This document shows, in pieces, positions 7,003 through 59,998 of a stretch of DNA of 64,000 nt. The notes below the pieces were generated by a model. It searched no databases. It worked only from the letters and a program-made list of their open reading frames with translations, and was not told the origin of the DNA. Source of the DNA: Eledone cirrhosa (Eukaryota); NCBI GenBank assembly GCA_964016885.1, contig OZ024743.1:157666001-157730000 (forward strand). Reading direction: 5' to 3'. How positions within the stretch are numbered: position 1 is the stretch's first letter; every line of letters starts with the position of its first letter. Both the position numbers and the translations under genes were made by a program.

Positions 7003-7057
7003 ACTGCTATATATATTTCGGTGACAACCATCATTGGCTGTGACCTCTTCAGGCAGT
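7003..7057 (-). ncRNA. Type I hammerhead
   Basis: Inverted copy of 7905-7959. Confidence 0.75.
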
Positions 7058-7904: not shown

Positions 7905-7959
7905 ACTGCCTGAAGAGGTCACAGCCAATGATGGCTGTCACCGAAATATATATAGCAGT
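7905..7959 (+). ncRNA. Type I hammerhead
   Basis: actgc CTGAAGA GGTCACAGCC aatgat GGCTGTCACC GAAA TATATA TA gcagt. Confidence 0.8.
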
Positions 7960-8348: not shown

Positions 8349-8793
8349 GATATTAAACAAATGGAAACTATATTTATAAAACCATATTTATTTCATTATA
8401 CATATTTCAGGGATACCATATTAAAAATATGGCATGCCTTCTTCAGATAAAATACAATATATAAGCAGTTTTATAAATAAATTTGACGTACCATAGAATT
8501 TTGAACAACTTCCATTTAAAAAAGTTGGTTTGGTAGTAAATGGAAGTTGTTCAAAATTCTATGGTACGTCAAATTTATTTATAAAACTGCTTATATATTG
8601 TATTTTATCTGAAGAAGGCATGCCATATTTTTAATATGGTATCCCTGAAATATGTATAATGAAATAAATATGGTTTTATAAATATAGTTTCCATTTGTTT
8701 AACATCGTATATCTACTCCAAAACTTGTTGAGTGCTTTATATCAGTTATAAAATATTTGCTCGTTGTAACCCAACAATTTTAAATAAAACTTT

Positions 8794-9838: not shown

Positions 9839-10041
9839 TAATATAAGATCAAAAGATGGTTAAAGGAGTTCAATGTATTTTATTATGCGAATTTCAAAAA
9901 CAAACATCATCATGCAATAATATTTGTGTTTTCATCAGATAAAACAGGAGAACATGATATGAAGGCTAAAAAACACTTGTGGATAGTGCAGTTTTAAATC
10001 AACATATGAAAAGTGGTTTTAGATTGATGTGTGATATTGGA

Positions 10042-12487: not shown

Positions 12488-12800
<313 letters not shown>

Positions 12801-15188: not shown

Positions 15189-15249
15189 TTTCATTCTGAT
15201 GATTGAAAGCAAAATTTGTTTGCTTTCAAGAAACCACTGGTAAATGAAA
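15189..15249 (+). ncRNA. Type I hammerhead with intact core
   Basis: tttcatt CTGATGA TTGAAAGCAAA atttg TTTGCTTTCAA GAAA CCAcTGG TA aatgaaa: 7-bp stem I, 11-bp stem II. Confidence 0.9.
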
Positions 15250-23530: not shown

Positions 23531-26500
23531 TTTTTTTTTTTTGGGGGGGGGGGCTTTTGAATAAATGTCGTACTTAATAAAGACATTTACTTTTATCAAA
23601 GTAACCATTTAAAACAGTAAATTCGATAAGCCCTGCATTCTATCATGTGGCCAAGGCTACTGAATCTGTGAATTACAAATGAAAGTAGAGAATGCCCTCT
23701 CAGTAACACCTGTCTATAAATAGATTCAGGTTATTTCAATAGGGAGATGGGGTGGTATCATGTATTGTCTCTTTTCGTTCCTCGCAATTTTGGGGGGTTT
23801 TGTTTTGGTCTGTTTTTGAAATAAATAAGTGAGTGCAAGGTAAGGAGGAATGTGTAATTGTGTGTGTATTTGCGTGATACAATTGCTCCAGGTTGGTTCC
23901 ATGAGTTGTCGCCAGTGGAATGAGGCAGAGGTGTTTTATCTCTGGTGCGCAACCAATACTTTTCAATTTTTTTTTTAAGATCTTGTATTTCTGTTATTCC
24001 TCTCCGTGGATTGTAAATGGCGAAATCCGTTCGAATATGTCCCTGGGAGCTAAGTGATCTAAAGAAATGGTAAAATCCACAGTTCTATGAAAAATACTTT
24101 AAAGAAACCACAGACACGTGAAAAAGGGTAAAATTGAAAATGTTTCCCCCTTTTGGTGTTGAATTGGGAGTGTAAAAATGTTCCAATCACATGCTCTCGA
24201 TTCGTAAAGTTTTAATAATTAATTCTCTTTTTCCATGTGTAACATGACTATAATACAATCTCCCTAATTTGCCTCATTTGTGTGGTTGTGTTGTTTTGCT
24301 GCTGAATGTAGCAGAGGCCCCCCCCCCCCCCCCCCCCGAAAAACACGCCCACACAGATCGGATAAAGATATAGACAAAATACAGGATACAATCACTAAGA
24401 AAGTACCTTCTACGTATTTCGATCCAAATAAAAATAACAGCAATAAGGATAACAACTACAATAAGGCATGATGGAGTGAAGAACTAAAATAACTAAGAAT
24501 GACTCACTCATTCAAAAATATAAATACTATTCTACAGATTACAATTATGAAACATATAAAGGACTAAGGAAAAAGTTTAAAAGGCAAATAAAACAGGTCA
24601 AAAATGATTTCTGGTCTACCAAAGCTATCCTGGGATCCATTGGCGATATATAAAGCTTATACAACGCAATGATCAAAACAAAACCTCCCAAAACAAATCA
24701 AGAGCTATTGACACATGACCTCAATGGTGAGGTAATCTCAGACACTTACAAAATCTCTTCACTCTTTGCATAATCATTTTTGGCACCACTTCAATTACAG
24801 AATCTGTCTACCAGTTGACACCATCCAATAGCCTTACTAAGCAATCTTTCAAAAATGCTAGAAAAAATTATAGGCAATAGATTATCTTCCACAGAACATT
24901 TTCTACAAATCCCAGTTTGGATTTCTAGTTAATAGAAACACTGAGAACTGTGTATATGGAATAATCACATTCATCAGAAACTCAAAACTCTTGGAAAAAT
25001 CAACTAGCTTGATCTCACTAGACATAAAAGGAGCTTATAACAATGTAATTCATGACACTCTAGTCAAAACACTACACCAATTTGAAATCCCCAAATTTCT
25101 TTGTAACTGGGTTGAAAGCTTTCTCACTCATCGTAGTACAAGTCTGAATCTTGGAAATGAGAAAAGCAAACTTATTTACCTTTTAAAGGGTCTCTCTCAG
25201 AGTTCGCCAGTCTCATCCATTCTCTTTCTATATTACACAACAGATTTGTTTACATATCTAAATAAAATTGTAAAAGTATCTGGTTTTGCAGATTATATCA
25301 ACTTATATACTTCATCTAGTATCATTAAAAACAACAAAACCAAATTATGCACAGCCCTATCAACGGCAACTGAATAGGCAAAAGAAAATGGCCAACAATG
25401 TAATCCCTCTAAAGCACAACTGGTTTATTTCCATTATCCTGAACCTATCAATTATCAATGCGATGAAATATACTTGATGAACCAACTACTGATACCACAA
25501 AAATCGATCAAGATACTAGGCATTTGGTTACAATCTGACTTGAAATGGGAAACTCATCTCAAACACACGCTGAAAAAAAATAACTTCAACATAACATGCA
25601 ATTAACGTAATTTCAAAGAAATTCTGCTGCGTAATATACAATCACTTGAGACTGTATAATAAGAGAGTCATCAACGCTCAATTGTTGTATTGCAGCTGGG
25701 TTTGGGGACACACAAAGTACTAGCTATCTTCAAGCTATTGATAGCTTCCGTACCCAAATTGGCAAATCCATACTTGGATGTCAAAGATCTACTCCCAAGA
25801 TAGTGATTTTTCATGAAGCAGGGTTAACCCCAACTCGCTTGTTGATAGAAGAGTCCAGGAAATGCAAATTGCTAACTGCCCAGTTTAAAGAAAACAGCAT
25901 GATATTTTGCTTCCTCCATGAGTAGAATAATTCAAATCGTATAAAATAATGATTAAACAGACAAAGGAGAAAGCAAAAGAACTCCATAACATTATCCCAC
26001 AGTCAATCTCTTTTAACAGCTGGGTTTGCTACACAGACAGGGCGCATTCAGTCAAGAGAGTGGGTTCTGGAGCTACTTTGTCTTTCAAAAATAATTTTAG
26101 AAATATGAACTTCAGATTACATCGGTATTGCACTATATTTGATGCAGAATACTGGGGAATAACATTATCCATAGATTCAGCGAAGAAATTGCACTGGAAA
26201 ATGTTGTTTTTTTTAATTTCCTGATAGTATGTCGAACCTAGAACTGCTTCAGTAGAGAAGAAAGGGTTGGGGTTAGTGATATTGAGAACGTTCCGCTAAA
26301 AGTAGATAACTTCCTCTCAGAAAATACTAAAGAAATAACAGTGATTTGGGTACCGGGCCATACAGATATAAGAGGAAATAGGGAAGCAGACGAATTAGCA
26401 AAAGAAGGAGTACAAAGGGAAATAATAGATATAGGCTATATTCCAAATCTTTCGCAGGTAAAATCATTTAGTAAACATATAATTAGTCAAGGGTGTGAAA

Positions 26501-27033
26501 CATTTCGGGAAGAATCCAGAGATAAGCTCACAAATTTCAATCTCCCAATTTCTCAACCAGATTTCACAACATTCAAAACTTATCGATAATTGAGTAATGC
26601 AAATAAAAAAAAATGTGCTGGACATATACCTTTGAACTACATTATATCAACAACAGGTCGTAGAGATTCACCTTTATGTTCTTTGGCACTTTTTGGCACC
26701 ATCAGTCTGAGGGAGAGGCCATGTTGAAACCAATCTTTAAAAAACTACCAAGATTAAAAGTTCAATATATGATTATACGCCTACCAAATATAAACAAAAT
26801 CTTTGAGTACATGGAATCTACGAAAATATTCAACAACAGAAACTTCTAGCTGTTTTACTAATTTCCTTTTTTTTTCGTTTTCTGATGCATGATTTTTTCC
26901 CCCTTTTTGATTTTTTATTACTTGCCTCTCTAGCCCTTTTTTATTACCAACTATAAGGAATACTTAATACATCCCCTAGTCTATCATGGCTTACTAGCTC
27001 TATACGGACGTTTAAATTGAATAAATAAATAAA

Positions 27034-27900
27034 TGTAACACTGTTGTCATCATGAATACAGATTACTATAAAGATCCGGCATTTAAAATGTTAGAAAACA
27101 ATAGTTACTATGAAAAACTACCCAGCTACAAACAATAAAAAATAATGCAAAATCTTCTAACTTTGCTAAATAAGTACCGCAAAGGTCTCACCGCGAAAGA
27201 CATCGACTACATAAGCCACTTCAAATGAAAAACTAGCATGTACTTTGGCCTACCGAAAATACACAAATGCATAATGATAAATGGCGTTTGTACAACCTCG
27301 ACAACCAAATACATCCAGTTAACATTTAAAGCTCGGTTCAATTATAGAAGGCCCCTCGTGTGAAACATAGAGACTAGGTAACTTCTTGTACATCCTTTTA
27401 AAGCCCTACCTAAAATGTGTGCAGAGTTATATATGAGATGATCTAGACATACTCAATCATTTCCCCCAAAAGTGTAAGTGAGCACCAATTTTTGTTCCCT
27501 TCGATGTTGTCAACTTATACACGAACATGCCCATGACTGTGGAATAACAGCAATTGAATAGTAGCTAGACACACACAATTCTGAATTACCAGCACTCATT
27601 AAAAAGGATTTCATCTTTGATGATCGCAGATTGATTCTACAAAACAATTATTTTTGTTCACTAGATCTACGTATCGACAACTATCAGAAACCGCAATGGG
27701 CACAAAATAGCCCCTACATACGCCAGTTTAGTCATAGTATTTCATAAATTCATGAACAAAAGATTTACAGTCAATCTCTTCTACATTTTGGAGACACATT
27801 TCACACACAACTAAAAAACAATTGGAAAAAGTACCTGGGTGATTGATTTATCTTATGGCAGGAAAACTTTGCTACACTTATAGAATTCGAAAATGCACTG
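27034..27900 (+). mobile_element. Penelope RT (continuation of 19900-20630)
   Basis: VVIMNTDYY, FGLPKIHK, FDVVNLYTN, TAMGTK, WKKYLGD; stops and frameshifts. Confidence 0.85.
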
Positions 27901-37083: not shown

Positions 37084-37124
<41 letters not shown>

Positions 37125-37177
37125 AGTATGTATGTATACGTACATACATATATGTATACAGACGTACAGAAGCATGC

Positions 37178-37212
<35 letters not shown>

Positions 37213-37380
37213 TACACATATGCATACAGGTACACATACATATATGCACGCATCAGTTTAGCCGACGTTTATTATAACGCCTGCTTTGTTCGTTTGTTTG
37301 TCAACAAATCGAACAGCCTGAATTTATGCCATACGGTGTTAAGGCAACCACGTCACCTTTTTGTTCAACACTGACACAGG

Positions 37381-37425
37381 AACGATGTACTAGTTTCAAG
37401 CTTGTTAGCTATCATCAGCACCGTT
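37381..37425 (-). ncRNA. Minimal type I hammerhead
   Basis: aacggtg CTGATGA tAGCT aaca AGCTt GAAA CTAG TA catcgtt. Confidence 0.85.
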
Positions 37426-37659
37426 TACCCATCTGCCAGATAGTTGAACGTTCGAAAGTATATACTTTCCTTATGAAAATTAACGGCTGAGCAGCCTAAT
37501 TTGCATATTGAGTGAGTTAAATCGGTCAGGCATACCGAAAACGATAAGTTGAAAAAAATGAAAACGAAATTTCATTTCTCACTCTTAGTATGGCACTTAC
37601 TTAAATGTAAGTATGTATGTATACGTACATTCATATATGTATACAGACGTACAGTAGCA

Positions 37660-37718
<59 letters not shown>

Positions 37719-37877
37719 GCATACAGGTACACATACATATATGCACGCATCAGTTTAACCGACGTTTATTGTAACGCCTGCTTTGTTGGTTTGTTTGTCA
37801 ACAAATCGAACAGCCTGAATTTATGCCATACGGTGTTAAGGCAACCACGTCACCTTTTTGTTCAACACTGACACAGG

Positions 37878-37922
37878 AACGATGTACTAGTTTCAAGCTT
37901 GTTAGCTATCATCAGCACCGTT
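37878..37922 (-). ncRNA. Minimal type I hammerhead (identical copy)
   Basis: Same sequence as 37381-37425. Confidence 0.85.
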
Positions 37923-38011
37923 TACCCATTATAAGCAGGCGTTATAATAAACGTCGGCTAAACTGATGCGTGCATATATGTATGTGTACCTGGATGCATA
38001 TGTGTATATAG

Positions 38012-38074
<63 letters not shown>

Positions 38075-38187
38075 TGCTACTGTACGTCTGTATACATATA
38101 TGTATGTACGTATACATACATACTTATATTTAAGTAAGTGCCATACTAAGAGTGAGAAATGAAATTTCGTTTTCATTTTTTTCAACT

Positions 38188-38220
<33 letters not shown>

Positions 38221-38864
38221 ATGTGTGTGTATGTATATGTGTGTGTATATATATATATATATATATTTATCTCTTTATATCTCCCCCCTCTCTCCCTCTC
38301 TATCCATCCCTCCCACTATTATCTATTTAATTCTCTTTAACTCACTACACTCCACGACATGATGTCTGCTATCAAAACTGACGAAAGAATCCTTCCACCT
38401 CTACCCCTACCTCCACCTCAGTTTGTCATTTTACTTCCTACCTCTTCCCCCTTCCTCTCTCTCTATACTATGCCGTCTGTCCCCTCACCTCCTGATTCCT
38501 CTTTCTCTATACTAGTAAATACAATTCCAAATAAATGTTTTTCTCTATATATTAAGAATTATTTCAAGAGTAACTCACTATTTTGAAAATTTGGACTGTG
38601 AACAACAATTATAATTGAGTGGCTGCTATTTGCAGTATAGCAATATAAGGTTGTAAATACCTGGATTAAATCCTTCTCTTAATGCTTACCTGTGTTTTCT
38701 CTTTATACTTTATACTCCAAGATTGAACGGAATTCTTACAAACTTGTGGAGTTACCCTTAACCGTACGTTGAAACCATCCATGAAACTGGCTTTCTTAAC
38801 CAAAAACTGGATCACAATAAGCAATTTTTTGCTTCTCTAACTATATATATATATATATATATAT

Positions 38865-39129
38865 AACAAAATGGCGTAGGACAGAACAAAGGAGATGCAC
38901 AGAAACAAACAAAGAAAAGAATCCCCAGTCACTGAAGAGGTCACAGAGTGTGTGACGAAAGAACTATGACTATATATAAACAACTATCTGGTTGTGGAAC
39001 CAACCAACCAACCAGAAATTTATAAATTTATAAATTTATAAATTTATAAATTTGTAAATATATAATAAATTGAAGTGAAAGCAACTGGTGCGTGTGTTTC
39101 TTATTGGCAACATGACCCTCCCAAAGTAT

Positions 39130-41017: not shown

Positions 41018-41056
41018 TGAACAAGTACTTTCATGCTTTCGCAATCTTCAGGTTCA
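41018..41056 (-). ncRNA. Minimal type I hammerhead in the pLTR
   Basis: tgaac CTGAAGA tTGC gaaa GCAt GAAA GTAC TT gttca. Confidence 0.85.
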
Positions 41057-42347
41057 TAATATGTGGAGACAGTCAAGTTTGCAATTTTCAACTGTACTGA
41101 GATGGGTAAATTTTGTGGCTTATATACAGTGAAAAGTGGCTCCAGAATGCTAAATCTTGCAAACTGTATTCCGACCAATCGGTGTGTAGTTTCACTGGAT
41201 TACTAAAGCTGATTGGTTTAGGCGTCACGGTTGGTTGAGCATGTCTGACGACTACTGTTTGACCCTATCCAAAGCATCAATTGTTTTGCTATTTTTAGAA
41301 ATGATGAAAATAGCATTTTCTAGTAATCATCACTATCAATATCACTTTTATTATTATTATTGTTGTTGTTGTTAGTGGTGGTAGTCGACATGACATGGTC
41401 GTAGTCATAGTCATAGTAGGAGTAATACCCCATTATTATTGTTCATTTAGCTCGGGTTGGAATTTATCAATAAAATTCTTTTCTTTGATTTTTCTCTTGA
41501 TTTCACTTGGGCTGTGTAATTTGTAGAATGGAAATATTATAAATATTCTCAGACCACATGTTGCTAGATGCTTACTCAGGGGTATCTGACTGATATTTGG
41601 ATCTCTGACTTGCTGTCGGTGCACCCGTGCACGTTCCGATAGTGCATTTCCAGTTTGACCGACATATAGTTCTTCACAATTCGGACATTTAATGCAGTAA
41701 ATTAGATTTCTGCTTTTGCAGTTCATATTTGCATTTGGGAATATTTTTCAAGTTTTTGTGTTCATATATTGACCGGCGTGTATGGATTGACATGTGCCAC
41801 ATCGACTATCATTGTATTTAGATATAGTGAATGATTGGTCTTTGTTGTTAAGGTCAAACTTTGCTTTTGTTAGTAATTGATTCAAATTTTTCGGATGTCT
41901 TTTACTAAGAGTCAAAGATCGGTCTGTGATTAAGCCTTTTAATTCATTACTTTCAGCAATGATCGGTAGGTTTGCTTTGGCAGTGTTAAAGATATTCTGA
42001 TGACATGGGTTGTGTGTCATTATAAATGGTATGACCAGTTCTTGGTTTCTTCTTCCTTGGCTTGTCCTAAGTTGTTGCATAGGTATTTTTATAGCCCGCT
42101 GTATGCCATTTTCTATAAGTAGAGATGGGTATTTTTGTTTGAGCAAAAATTCTCTTAGTTCTGTTAGGCATTTGTTCCTGGTATTCGTATCTACTACAAT
42201 GGTACAAATTCTTCTGGCTTGGCTGTATGGGATGTTGCGTTTTGTATGAGGTGGATGGCACGACTTAAAATTCAGATATTGATGGGTGTCTGTGTGTTTA
42301 TAATATATATCCGTGGTAATGGTGGTGTCGTTTTTGATTACCATTAT

Positions 42348-42517
42348 CAGTAGAGGGTCTGACGCCATGCTTTCCAGCATAGTTACGTCCCTTTACGATC
42401 TGAGTTCAAATCCCGCCGAGGTTGACTTTGCCTTTCATCCTTACGGGGTCGATAAAATAAAGTACCAGTAATGCCCTGGGTAATTGCTGGCCTTGTGCCT
42501 GAAGTAGAAACAATTAT
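42348..42517 (+). mobile_element. SINE family A inserted in the Penelope RT
   Basis: Removing it restores PFLDIMVIK; attat is duplicated at the flanks. Confidence 0.9.
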
Positions 42518-44032
42518 ATCTAGGAATGGTAATTATGTACTACTCATCTCTTTTGTGAATTGTAGAGATGGGTGTAGGTTATTCAGGAGGATATTGAACT
42601 CATCCCGAGTATCTAGAGATTCTGTGCAGATGATGAAACAGTCGTCAAGGTATCACTTCCAAGATTTTTCAATGTACTTTCTAAAGTCAGTGCTATATTT
42701 TTCCTCTATTTCTTGGTAGAGTTGTTGTTCTAAATATCCCATTACAGAGTTCGCGTAAAAGGGAGCAAACTTCGTTCCCATCGCCTCTAATGTGGATGTA
42801 ATTCTTTCCATTGAAGAAGAAAGTGTTGTTTTCCAGAATAAGTTTGACTGCGTCTAATATAAATGGCGCTGTGAATCTGGTGGGAATCACTTCTCTATGT
42901 TTTTCCACCCAGTATTTAACCGCCTTTATTCCTAAATTGTGTGTAATGTTGGTGTAAAGGCTTACCACATCAAAGCTAAGTAGCAGTGAATTCGTTTCCG
43001 TGGTTTTGGGAAGATGGGACAGGAAGTCGACATCATCCCGGATGAAACTGGGTATGTGAATACATAGTGGTTTGAAAATAATGTCAACAAAAATGCTTAG
43101 ACGATGGGTAGGGCATGTTGGACCAGCTATAATAGGTCTAAGTTTTAAGTCTTTTGGGTCTAGTAATTTAATGTACTCACTGTTTTGTTCTTTTACTGCC
43201 AGTTGTATTTCTTTTGACTTATGAACTTTCGGTAGGCCATACAGGTTGCTGGGTTTGGGCTCAAAATTATCAGTAAGTGAGTTGTGGTATTTTGAAGCCA
43301 GATTGTTGATCTTCTTCATGATGTTGTGGTCTATATTTGACAGTATTTCATGATAGAATGTTGTGTCTTTCAGTTGTTCCTCAACCAAATCCTTGTAGTA
43401 TTCAGCATCCATTATAACACCTGCACCCCCTTGTTTAATTATTATTGTTTTATCATTTTGTATACGTTTAAGTGCAGACATTTCTGATTTGTTAATGTTT
43501 GGCCTAACATTAGTATTACGTCTAAGATGAAATTTAGACAGGATGTCAATGTTTTGGTCGAGATAGATATTTCTTCCTTTTGGCGGAGTGAAATTTGATT
43601 TATTCTTTACTAGTGATTCATCACTCTCGTTACTTTTATCAGCGAAGAATTCTACAAGACGTAATTTTCGACAGAATTCTTGGGTATCCTCCTTCAGTTC
43701 TTGGTGGTTGACTGTTGGCGTCGGTGTGAAGTCCTTTTGACAGAATTTGTATTTCATCATTGTCAAGATCTTTTTTGGATAAATTAATTATTTTAGGATC
43801 TACGTGTACAGTTGTTTTGGGTATGTTTCCTCCTGGAGTTTTTCTTTTTCCGGTTTTTGTTGTCCTGATGTTAAAAAATGGATTTTTCTCTGTTCATGAT
43901 TTATATTCCTGTTGGTGTTCGCTTGATGAACTTTTGGTCGTGATATTATATTTGGTTTCGTTATGTTTCTTGTCCTATTTTTGGTATTATGTATATTATT
44001 TTTCCATTTCTTGTTAGCATTATTTTTAACAT

Positions 44033-44218
44033 GGGGCGGTGAATTGGCAGTATCGGTAGAGGGTTGGACGCCATGTTTTCTAGCATAATTACGTCCCTTT
44101 ACGGTCTGAGTTCAAATCCCGCCAAGGTTAACTTTGCCTTTCATCCTTACGGGGTCGATAAGATAAAGTACCAGTAGTGTACTGAGTAATTACTGGCCTT
44201 GTGCCTAAAGTAGAAACA
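44033..44218 (+). mobile_element. Full-length SINE family A with 14-bp TSD
   Basis: attatttttaacat at 44019-44032 and 44219-44232; A box tggcagtatcgg, B box gagttcaaatcc. Confidence 0.92.
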
Positions 44219-52619: not shown

Positions 52620-54688
52620 ATGAGTGTTGCGGAAAGCCGATAACAGCCGCTGAAGTACGAGAGGCTGTGACTGGCTGCACGATGGGCCAATCGTCTGGTT
52701 GGGATGGTCTTCAATATGAGCTTTACGTACACATATTAGACTTGTTCGGAGATCACTTGGCGGATGTCTACTGCAACTGGCAGCAGAACGGCATAAATCC
52801 CTGCTGTGAACCGAGGACCGTTGGTGCTGCTGAGAAAGGACCCGAACAAAGAGGACAACATAGATAATGTCAGGCCTATAACTCTGCTAAACTCAGAGTT
52901 CAAGATTTTGGCCAAGGTGCTAGCAAAGAGGTTGGCACTTGTCGACGGGAATCTGGTGGGAGAGGCACAGACATGCGCAATTCAAGACAGATCCATCCGC
53001 GACAACCTACACCTCATGCGATACATCGTGGAGAGGGTAGCTAAAAAAACCTGGCACGGGTGGGGCTTTGATCAATTTAGATCAGCCGAAGGCTTTCGAT
53101 GGGGTCGGCCATCGGTGTTTAGTGGGGGTTCTGAGGGCGGTCGGCGTCAGGTCCGTCTTCAGAGGCTGGATCGCGGCCATGCCCAATGTCATCTGCTCTG
53201 TGGGGAGAGTGAACGGTCACCTTTTGGAACCATTCAACATCAAATGTTCGGTCCGCCAAGGATATTCCTTCTCGTCCCTGTTGTAAATATTGAGTCTCTA
53301 GCCATTGCTGCACAAACTGGAGACGTTGAGAGGCGTCCCGCGAGAAGTGGGATGCGGGACAACCGCGTCAGCTTATGCGGACGCCATTACCGTAGTGGTG
53401 TTGAACACCAAACTTATCGAGGCGATCGGCACTGGTCTAAGAGCATACGAGGCGGTGATAGGTGCAATGATTAACCAAGAAATGTCAGTGGGCTCGCGGC
53501 TCGGTACCTGGAGAAGCAAGCCCATAACGTCCACCAGCGGTATGTGGCACTGGACGGACTAACGGGTTAAATTTCTAGGGGTATGGTTCGGTCCGGACAT
53601 ACAGACGAGCAGAACCTGGGACAAGGGGATGAGCAGCGTGGCTTTTCTCACTCAGAAACGGGCCGTGAGGAAGCTAACCCTGAAAGGTCGAGCGGGGTGT
53701 GACGAATGCGTACATCATGCCCATATTCTACTACCACATGACTATCAAGCCTTACCTAAGCCTCACCTGACTGCACTGGAGCGTTTTCCCGTTTCGCTTT
53801 GTGGAAGGGATGCACTCCAATGGTCAGGCAGTCCATCATTTGTCAACACCCACTACGTGATAGGGCTGCACATGCCGTGGCTGATGATGTGCAGACATGC
53901 GCTGAGGCTACATCTCCAGCTCTTCCTTGACAATGAACATGTGTGGTCGCCCTTTGCTAGACACGTTTTACCCCAGCACGTCTCCTTCATGGAGCTGCAG
54001 TCTGGGTCAAGCGAACACCGAGAGTGAGCGCTTGGAGATTAGAATGTCTTCAGGTCCTCACAGCCCTCAGTCAATTGGGCACTGCGAACGGTGGAAACTC
54101 CACATTGGCGTTATATAGAGGATTAGTGGAGGTCAAGGGCGACGACATCCACGGAGAGGGTCTGGGCGTCGATGAAAATCAACTAGTTAATCTCTTCGGC
54201 AGATCTTTCGGAACGAGGCCCATGGACAACTTCCAGAAATCCTTGGCTTGGCAGAGCTCCTGAGATTTGCCAGTTTGTAATAAACTCGACAGGTATGGAA
54301 GTCCGATCAGCCGGAACTGTGTGAGATGCACGCAGGGTGCCGAAACCGTCAAGCACCTATCTCTTCGGCAAAGCCCTGATTAACTTTTTCGAATTTCATT
54401 TGAAAAGGAAAATGAGGATGAGTGGGAAGTGGTTCCTTTCAAGCAATTTGTTGAAAGATGGATGAGAGAGACGAAAACTGGCAGAGGGCACTTGCCCTGG
54501 TGGTCAGAGTCACCATGGCTTTTATGTGGGCTTTCTCCACGTTTGAACCTCGTATGCCCCCCCCCCCCCTCACCCCCCCGATTTGAGAATCTTTCTTTGG
54601 TTCATTTTTTTGTTACATCCTTTGTCTTTGTATTGTGCTGCCCTTAATGTTATACTTTGTCTCAACCCTTGTGGTTAATAAAGAAAAC
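52620..54688 (+). mobile_element. 5'-truncated L1/Tx1-clade LINE ORF2, degenerate
   Basis: SSGWDGLQYELY, RPITLLNSEFKILAKVLAKRL, LDQPKAFD, SVRQG, AYADAIT; AATAAA plus A-rich end. Confidence 0.9.
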
Positions 54689-59524: not shown

Positions 59525-59998
59525 CCTTGTTACGACTTTTACTTCCTCTAAGCGATCGGGTTCGGTCGTCTTCTCCGAGCCATCACAGAGCGCACCGACG
59601 ACGGCAATGAACCGACCTGACGGCCGCACCGAAACGCCGCCGCGCGGCCTGCGAACTCGTCGACCAGATCCTAGGACCTCACCGGACCGTTCAATCGGTA
59701 GTAGCGACGGGTGGTGTGTACAAAGGACAGGGACGCGATCGAGGCGGGCTGATGAACCGCGCCTACCGGGAATTCCTCGTTCCCGGGGTTGGTACCAGGC
59801 CCCGATCCCTATCACAGGAGGTGGTTCAGAAGTTTCCTGACCCTCTCGGGCCGGGGAGCGGCGCCCGCTGATACCTCCAGTGTAGCGCGCGTGCGACCCC
59901 CGACATCTAAGGGCAACACAGACCTGTTATCGCTCTGCCTCGTGCGGCTTTCTGCCGCCCGTCCTTCTATGAAGCGCTGCGTTTGCCAACCGACTGGC
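59525..59998 (-). pseudogene. 18S rRNA 3' fragment
   Basis: Reverse complement holds taacaggtctgtg.tgcccttagatgt, gaggaattcc, tttgtacacacc.cccgtcgctactaccgattgaa and aaaagtcgtaacaagg, with substitutions at universal positions. Confidence 0.93.

Follow-up and report, generated by a model that had tools for sequence, protein, structure and literature searches.

A tandem hammerhead repeat of Eledone cirrhosa as a candidate non-LTR retrozyme with two-armed insertions

In the window, i.e. the whole 64,000-nt stretch of Eledone cirrhosa DNA analysed here, two hammerhead motifs lie head-to-tail on the minus strand and abut an inverted segment of the same repeat (Table 1), which raises the question of what kind of element this is and how such a copy could have been made. 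An earlier note on this DNA had proposed a non-LTR retrozyme bounded by two identical type I hammerheads, and most of its observations are borne out: 37370-37432 and 37867-37929 form two identical 63-nt stretches, the predicted cuts after the A at 37885 and at 37388 bound a monomer of 497 nt, which is also the period of the direct repeat, and the hairpins, the octamer ATGCAAAT and the (TA)n flanks are all present. The unit had been described as free of open reading frames, and its longest ATG frames, of 84 and 66 aa, are indeed antisense frames that span the microsatellite. A Penelope-type footprint had been claimed as well, and its inverted 5' segment (37933-38190, matching 37783-37544), one-end tail and (TA)n targets were all found. 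What had been missed is that the inverted segment is a second arm, which would have been primed independently, and that the octamer belongs to a U6-type promoter element. Outside the microsatellite, the window monomer carries three private changes (G97C, T114C and C127T). Contigs of sequencing runs over the window stretch are deep with many variants in X1, few and of low depth in X5 and X6, and absent in X4; they have no bearing on expression or circles.

Table 1. Features of the retrozyme-like locus and further hammerhead-like motifs in the window
Feature	Position	Strand	Basis
Left (TA)n target flank	37089..37118	.	sequence; TRF row 37089-37214
Arm A: 1.6 units (453-497, 1-497, 1-280) with the short start site (~280) as its outer end	37119..37929	-	maps
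Hammerhead 1, cut predicted after 37885; not preceded by a promoter at the window locus	37878..37922	-	
Hammerhead 2, predicted cut after 37388	37381..37425	-	
Cut-to-cut monomer, 497 nt, 34% GC	37388..37884	-	
TA/TG-rich long hairpin with length-variable (TA)n	37613..37751	-	
59-nt "tail" (internal copy) separating the two inferred start sites of reverse transcription; ends in T7 run 37552-37558	37547..37605	-	
12-mer TATGCAAATTAG, matches U6/U6atac upstream element	37496..37507	-	
TATA-like box, 43 nt after the 12-mer start	37458..37464	-	
Head-to-head arm junction, 3 bases in neither arm	37930..37932	.	
Arm B: unit positions 102-338, ~0.5 unit, outer end at the long start site, carries the tail	37933..38188	+	
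Right (TA)n/(TG)n target flank	38189..38270	.	sequence
Further hammerhead-like motifs	7008-7052, 7910-7954, 8397-8446, 8609-8658, 9884-9938, 12721-12749, 15196-15242, 38932-38966		

A duplication confined to this one locus, which would have spoken against a mobile element, is contradicted by the genome, as the unit is present in thousands of loci. The 3.0-Gb assembly contains 10,032 exact matches to the 41-nt ribozyme and 0 to its reversed control, a 371-nt query gave full-length matches of 100% identity in 40/40 scored (of 873 candidates), and family matches lie on contigs C1-C5; with ~10,000 exact and further, more diverged copies, the family makes up a few megabases of the genome. The loci that we read comprise 12 top-hit loci, 50 loci picked by their ribozyme, taken in sequence from the first 100 ribozyme places of the list, and 40 loci whose long end was among the first long-end junctions listed, all of the latter two sets being on contig C1. 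The monomer length of 497 nt holds for the window copy but not for the family, in which other units measure about 455-575 nt (479 and 466 nt in the youngest arrays), and there are several subfamilies that differ mainly at unit positions 57-127. Dispersed arrays of more than one unit, which the earlier note had suggested looking for, do exist, the largest having 15 ribozymes on one arm (L127+L128) and 18 ribozymes in total in L038+L300. The family thus has the tandem type I hammerheads (at least two consecutive), the non-coding units, the low GC content and the dispersed high copy number by which retrozymes are recognized, and to judge from these traits there is little doubt that the unit is a non-LTR retrozyme or non-autonomous Penelope-like element, which is a known kind. 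Plant LTR retrozymes are defined by a type III hammerhead in long terminal repeats, and neither is found here, where the hammerhead is of type I and the units are tandem.

The hammerhead had been called minimal, which describes it poorly. Its core reads CUGAUGA...GAAA-CUAG-UA in type I topology, helix I (AACGGUG/CAUCGUU) is extended through a bulge, sister families retain loop II (UAACAA), and helix III is the palindrome A-CUAG-U (ACUAGU), which together suggest that the ribozyme is closer to the canonical metazoan type with palindromic helix III. In the definition of PMC7229834, retrozymes have hammerheads of the canonical kind, with contact between loops I and II. The dimer fold is much stronger than the monomer fold (-18.0 vs -0.6 kcal/mol), and this fits the dimer rule for palindromic helix III (PMC4209133; cited papers are represented here and below by the available parts of their text). 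Inherited ribozyme changes fall on N7, on loop II, on a G-U pair that becomes A-U and on the distal end of helix I, one more being found at position 3 in three loci, while in sister families the pairs of helices I and II are replaced compensatorily and helix III stays palindromic. Judged by this pattern of substitutions, the ribozyme is under selection. At the gathering threshold, Rfam did not detect the window ribozymes, and its sole match was an 18S rRNA 3'-end fragment with an expanded loop (59526-59714, minus strand). The folding z-score of the monomer (-10.4) was set aside as evidence, as the TA/TG hairpin drives much of it. As regards cleavage in related systems, one of nine Xenopus dimers was cleaved in vitro and eight were not (bioRxiv 10.64898/2026.07.22.740005), and insertion of the anole Penelope element did not need cleavage (PMC11167929).

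How the units are inserted can be read from their ends. The arms diverge from a head-to-head junction, and each ends in (TA)n at unit position ~280 (short end) or ~338 (long end). Exact junctions of these ends with TA numbered 1,636 for the short and 390 for the long end, for which the pattern demands an exact T7, and controls gave 0. When pairs of ends were called strictly, 34/35 were short+long: 8 among the 13 top-hit loci including the window, with L034 as the one long+long exception, 18 among the 40 long-end-picked loci (0 long+long, 22 without a pair) and 8 among the 50 ribozyme-picked loci (42 without a pair). L054 appears to be short+short by BLAST (280/272), where the strict test made no call, and about ten long-end loci appear single-armed. 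For the window, an "AA" pair called by the test was dismissed as false, as it stems from a variant inside arm B. Among 33 pairs that were mapped, the arm with the short end exceeds its partner in 13 cases and falls short of it in 20, and in 19 cases the cut site is traversed by both arms. Two mini-insertions of 42 and 69 bp contain only the two starts, and as their sequences do not overlap, neither arm can be a fold-back copy of the other; together with the fact that either arm can be the longer one, this argues for a separate priming of each arm. Two-ended priming on the ribozyme-strand RNA is on these grounds very likely. Twin priming in Penelope elements was not described in the literature searched; in vitro, the anole Penelope element used two start sites and both strands were extended (PMC11167929). 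The inner arm ends are scattered over the unit, with only 3/134 within 10 nt of the cut site, and cut linear monomers have thus left no mark, so that the templates would be either circles or uncut multimers. At L162:1340-1400, a 5' arm end carries stuttered repeats of the cut-site sequence, as if the enzyme had slipped at the ligation junction.

The decision between circles and uncut multimers depends on how alike the units of one insertion are. In a 286-nt microsatellite-free block, units differ at 1.3 positions within loci (436 pairs, a mean weighted by few large young arrays) vs 11.6 between loci (2,415 pairs), and locus-private variants are found on both arms of L044, L046 and L168. In case of L137+L301, units of 544 nt and 500 nt alternate on both arms (7+7 ribozymes), the 500-nt unit carries A64G, and both ends, one short and one long, lie in a 544-type unit; in its phasing, this heterodimer alternation is the pattern of a dimeric circle. 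Older arrays are heterogeneous and young ones homogeneous, and variants common to non-adjacent units of L038+L300 indicate that turnover at the DNA level also occurs in older arrays. As linear copying can neither lengthen arrays nor spread the change of one unit to all units, circles are favoured, and it is likely that the template RNA was circular. Circles as templates for more-than-unit copies have been proposed before, though not on evidence of this kind (PMC4209133), and for retrozymes a circle-templated tandem cDNA made by a Penelope enzyme has been suggested (PMC7229834).

A homologous sister family (L160:1100-2500, L302-L348) repeats this picture. It was recovered by a pattern for related CTAG hammerheads (5,678 hits, controls 9), has non-coding units of 460-468 nt without the microsatellite but with compensatory changes in the ribozyme stems, and forms arrays of about 20 units. 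Of the 29 loci read, 18 are two-armed, and in 16 of these a short end is paired with a long one; private variants extend over 19, 23, 8, 4 and 3 units, on both arms. The sole private changes of the 19-unit array are three A-to-G changes on the ribozyme strand, all inside the promoter 12-mer, and this triple change is present in 0 of the other 28 sister loci. This would be expected if one edited or mutated RNA had been copied round repeatedly, editing being suggestive. In the sister family, A-to-G changes on the ribozyme strand account for 4/9 array-wide private vs 3/59 unit-private changes (Fisher p 0.004), three of the four being one cluster, and no A-to-G bias was seen among the private array-wide changes of the main family. 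A-to-I editing was therefore rejected as a general signal, as it is absent in the main family and suggestive only in the sister family.

What alternatives exist for the circular template and the two-ended priming? Two-ended priming could in principle also use an uncut linear multimer that was transcribed from a long homogeneous array, with the ribozyme being a passenger or trimmer. Long arrays do exist, as mentioned for L038+L300 and L127+L128, L031-L033 have one 479-nt unit in common, and unprocessed RNA was the main in vitro substrate of the anole element (PMC11167929). Yet such a template explains neither the lengthening of arrays nor the conversion of a one-unit change into an all-unit change, and private variants extend through entire arrays, both arms included, the triple 12-mer change has no source among the other 28 loci, and older arrays are heterogeneous despite the homogeneity of young ones; we consider the linear template unlikely. 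Much less probable still is a formation of the arrays at the DNA level, by unequal crossover, slippage or extrachromosomal rolling circles after single insertions, with fold-back or antisense self-priming as the cause of the inversion. Local amplification by unequal crossover is favoured by Li et al. (bioRxiv 10.64898/2026.07.22.740005), head-to-head palindromes are explained by Arkhipova et al. through self-priming on an antisense template (PMC3846280), some junctions lie within small palindromes (L049, L068), and the turnover in L038+L300 is evident. Such processes would, however, not place both outer ends at fixed element positions in TA targets, let either arm exceed the other, keep the arms of mini-insertions free of overlap or preserve the heterodimer phase on both arms, and the array-wide excess of A-to-G changes in the sister family, clustered as it is, also argues against them. 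Fold-back chimeras and mis-sized arrays are known from long-read data, and no read spanning the whole locus was seen, but assembly or library artefacts would not fix the outer ends at two positions, pair short with long ends or give each locus its own variants, nor would they generate the identical pattern in the sister family and in an autonomous element, which makes this explanation negligible.

The unit could also be the pseudo-LTR of an autonomous Penelope-like element, its copies being truncated terminal pieces, as its footprint is that of Penelope elements (PMC8557442, PMC3846280). The ribozyme-picked loci were drawn from 100 listed of the 10,032 places, and L056 and L059 each have a single direct junction with a Penelope-like ORF fragment. 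In L133, such a junction appears to be present, judged by a motif alone. The ORF junctions all differ, though, head-to-tail joins recur at about 460-550 nt, and an ORF with reverse transcriptase and GIY-YIG domains was not found between ribozymes in the arrays read. By tblastn of 62 loci and the window (L129-L168 left out), only separate ORF fragments were detected. The earlier note had said that a unit serving as the terminal repeat of an autonomous Penelope, next to a GIY-YIG ORF, would refute its proposal; in the loci read, the unit was not found in that role. Intact Penelope-like families carry other ribozymes and have periods of 4.2-5 kb. We regard the pseudo-LTR explanation as very improbable. 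As a separate matter, the repeat is joined directly to other Penelope-like pieces in L056, L059, L071 and L133, be it by nesting or by template switching.

If the retrozyme is non-autonomous, a partner should supply the enzyme. Three intact Penelope-like families were compared, namely a Neptune-like family akin to the decayed window copy, a second Neptune-like family and a Hydra-like family, and their terminal repeats have no similarity to the unit, and their ribozymes differ. The clade names are presumed from motifs, Pfam having been run on window frames only. The intact Neptune-like element forms two-armed multimers with a 4.2-kb period and a ~60-nt tail, and an assignment of the partner by tail length (59 nt vs ~60 nt in this first Neptune-like family) was dismissed as too weak. 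The decayed Neptune-like element lies on the minus strand at 41020-44100 of the window and has its own hammerhead at 41051-41023; its intact relatives are common and have a 775-aa frame with a 476-aa frame upstream. Reverse-transcriptase remnants were also found at 24874-25377, 27028-27888 and 52797-53474, one of them 30% identical to the Neptune-like protein. Neptune-like families at L170, L184, L195, L197 and L126 have, by eye, a putative hammerhead core with TTGAAAA in place of CTGANGA.

Transcription of the unit may well start from an internal promoter. The octamer lies within the 12-mer at 37507-37496, and the U6 genes of this genome carry this 12-mer at -77 to -79 with 0-1 mismatch, followed by a TATA box 47-49 nt later, compared with 43 nt in the unit. 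With at most one mismatch, the 12-mer occurs within 300 nt upstream of 14/15 U6 loci (in 8 cases at -77 to -79; 11 of the 14 are from one tandem cluster) and of 0/15 U2 loci. Of 8 U6atac loci, the best one has it at -78 with one mismatch, and the 12-mer of the unit is identical to that of the U6 gene L230. A pattern of 12-mer, TATA and CTGANGA gave 19,150 matches (control 0), which include the main family and other hammerhead repeats, some of them otherwise unlike the main family and with a downstream motif that folds as a hammerhead by eye. Inherited variants in the 12-mer or TATA box were not seen in the loci compared. Local-alignment shuffle tests were significant for 1/2 U6 upstream regions in the main family (p about 0.004 and 0.16) and for 0/2 in the sister family. 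From the U6 spacing, the transcription start would be near 37434, and a T7 run sits between this inferred start and the next ribozyme; it is kept in 137 internal units of 43 loci and broken to T4 in other units. Such a run would terminate most transcripts of Pol III ahead of the second ribozyme. All in all, Pol III transcription from the U6-type element appears somewhat more probable than its absence. As to the U6 genes themselves, tandem U6 and U2 gene clusters are located at G000:C19:31.78-31.84 Mb and G000:C3:307.35-307.45 Mb, and in some U6 copies a repeat insertion separates the 12-mer from the gene.

A cycle that combines U6-type transcription, cutting by paired hammerheads, a circular RNA and re-insertion by a Penelope-like enzyme in trans is, taken as a whole, reasonably likely. 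Where an array holds two or more ribozymes and the first of them is preceded by a promoter, a read-through RNA would cover two hammerheads, which would pair via the palindromic ACUAGU helix III and release a monomer (or dimer) that would then be ligated. The Penelope-like enzyme would cut both (TA)n strands and prime both DNA ends on one and the same RNA, one of them at ~280 and its counterpart at ~338, each DNA end would be extended round the circle a variable number of times, and finally the two cDNA 3' ends would join head-to-head, followed by fill-in. Polymerase, cleavage, circle and enzyme are what we infer in this cycle; anatomy, copy number, ends, pairing, homogeneity and the promoter match come from the sequence. 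The window locus itself would hardly support such a cycle. Only 6-7 nt of the element precede the first hammerhead before the inversion, so that the 497-nt monomer could be released only by outside transcription; of the former description as a non-LTR retrozyme that releases this monomer, the identity is supported, but not the release at this locus. As ribozyme 1 lies ahead of the sole promoter, which is in the middle unit, and as arm B can pair with arm A, the locus is likely a product and not a source, and the window copy is probably a dead-end product.

A bolder reading, which we offer tentatively and for which the chances are slightly less than even, is that of a radiation of Pol III (U6-promoter) retrozymes comprising at least five hammerhead families with little in common beyond promoter and ribozyme core, whose insertions would directly document how Penelope elements are copied. 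A dimeric enzyme would prime both (TA)n break ends at two fixed sites on one circular RNA, go up to 15 rounds or more per arm and at times fix A-to-I edits of this one molecule in every unit. According to this reading, the normally external U6 promoter would survive retrotransposition only because the template is a circle.

Comparison with known systems places the family within a described kind. Like the retrozymes of coral, mussel and axolotl (PMC7229834) and of vertebrates (bioRxiv 10.64898/2026.07.22.740005), it has short, low-GC, non-coding tandem units in thousands of copies with one type I hammerhead per unit, and the U-U pair at the base of helix II is shared with the axolotl HHR_Amex2 (PMC7229834). 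The units are of 455-575 nt and include a microsatellite hairpin, compared with 170-400 nt in PMC7229834 and 51-972 bp in bioRxiv 10.64898/2026.07.22.740005. What distinguishes the family is the probable U6-type promoter together with the fixed-end two-armed insertions. In the available text of PMC7229834, "inverted" has 0 occurrences and cephalopods are not mentioned, and fixed short/long-end two-armed insertions are absent from the available text of both studies. That animal retrozymes are non-autonomous Penelope sequences has been argued by Li et al. (bioRxiv 10.64898/2026.07.22.740005). With Penelope-like elements of the Neptune/Hydra type (PMC8557442, PMC3846280, PMC4209133, PMC11167929), the family shares the hammerhead, partial tandems, the inverted 5' segment, the one-end tail, (TA)n targets and two start sites, whereas the unit has no ORF and the tail is of 59 nt instead of 30-40 nt. 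Chlamys MRC1-type elements (PMC8557442) are also non-autonomous, Penelope-like and inserted as multicopy head-to-tail arrays; their 3' ends are similar to those of autonomous partners and most of them have no hammerhead, while here no similarity to a partner was found. Newt satellite 2 and the schistosome hammerhead satellite are further hammerhead repeats with an internal small-RNA-gene promoter (cited in PMC2220036), which is reported to be of the snRNA-type Pol II class in newt and of the Pol III class in schistosomes, whereas the match here is to U6/U6atac and not to U2.

In the available text of PMC8557442, PMC11167929 and PMC3846280, the origin of the partial tandems, inverted 5' pieces and one-sided tails of Penelope-like elements, as well as the role of the hammerhead, is called unresolved. 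Two-end copying round one likely circular RNA would account for Penelope-type tandem and inverted copies, and thousands of young short two-armed insertions with fixed ends, together with array-wide private variants and dimer phasing, make the circle-template proposal (PMC4209133, PMC7229834) testable by counting, which is why the family is unusually informative about the mechanism. The ~480-nt unit is a substrate for an existing in vitro assay, and the U6-type promoter inside the unit, if true, tells how animal retrozymes are expressed. While the kind is known, neither this repeat family nor a U6 promoter in a retrozyme nor such per-insertion evidence was found described in the published literature searched, and the available text of an octopus repeat annotation (PMC13282606) contains neither "ribozyme" nor "hammerhead"; Repbase, Dfam and supplements lay outside the search, and the family may thus already be listed under some name.

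Other hammerhead repeats were encountered along the way. A 310-nt repeat (L041:1-1900, L046:5000-7001) forms perfect, two-armed arrays with locus-fixed ribozyme variants and a ~37-nt tail, and is devoid of the U6-type 12-mer. Three more short repeats (L259, L288 and L291-L299; L289 and L290; L277) have the U6-type 12-mer, a TATA box and a downstream hammerhead-like motif. The window contains eight further hammerhead-like motifs of other families (Table 1), two of them as inverted pairs, and the motif at 9884-9938 resembles the ribozyme of the active Hydra-like family.
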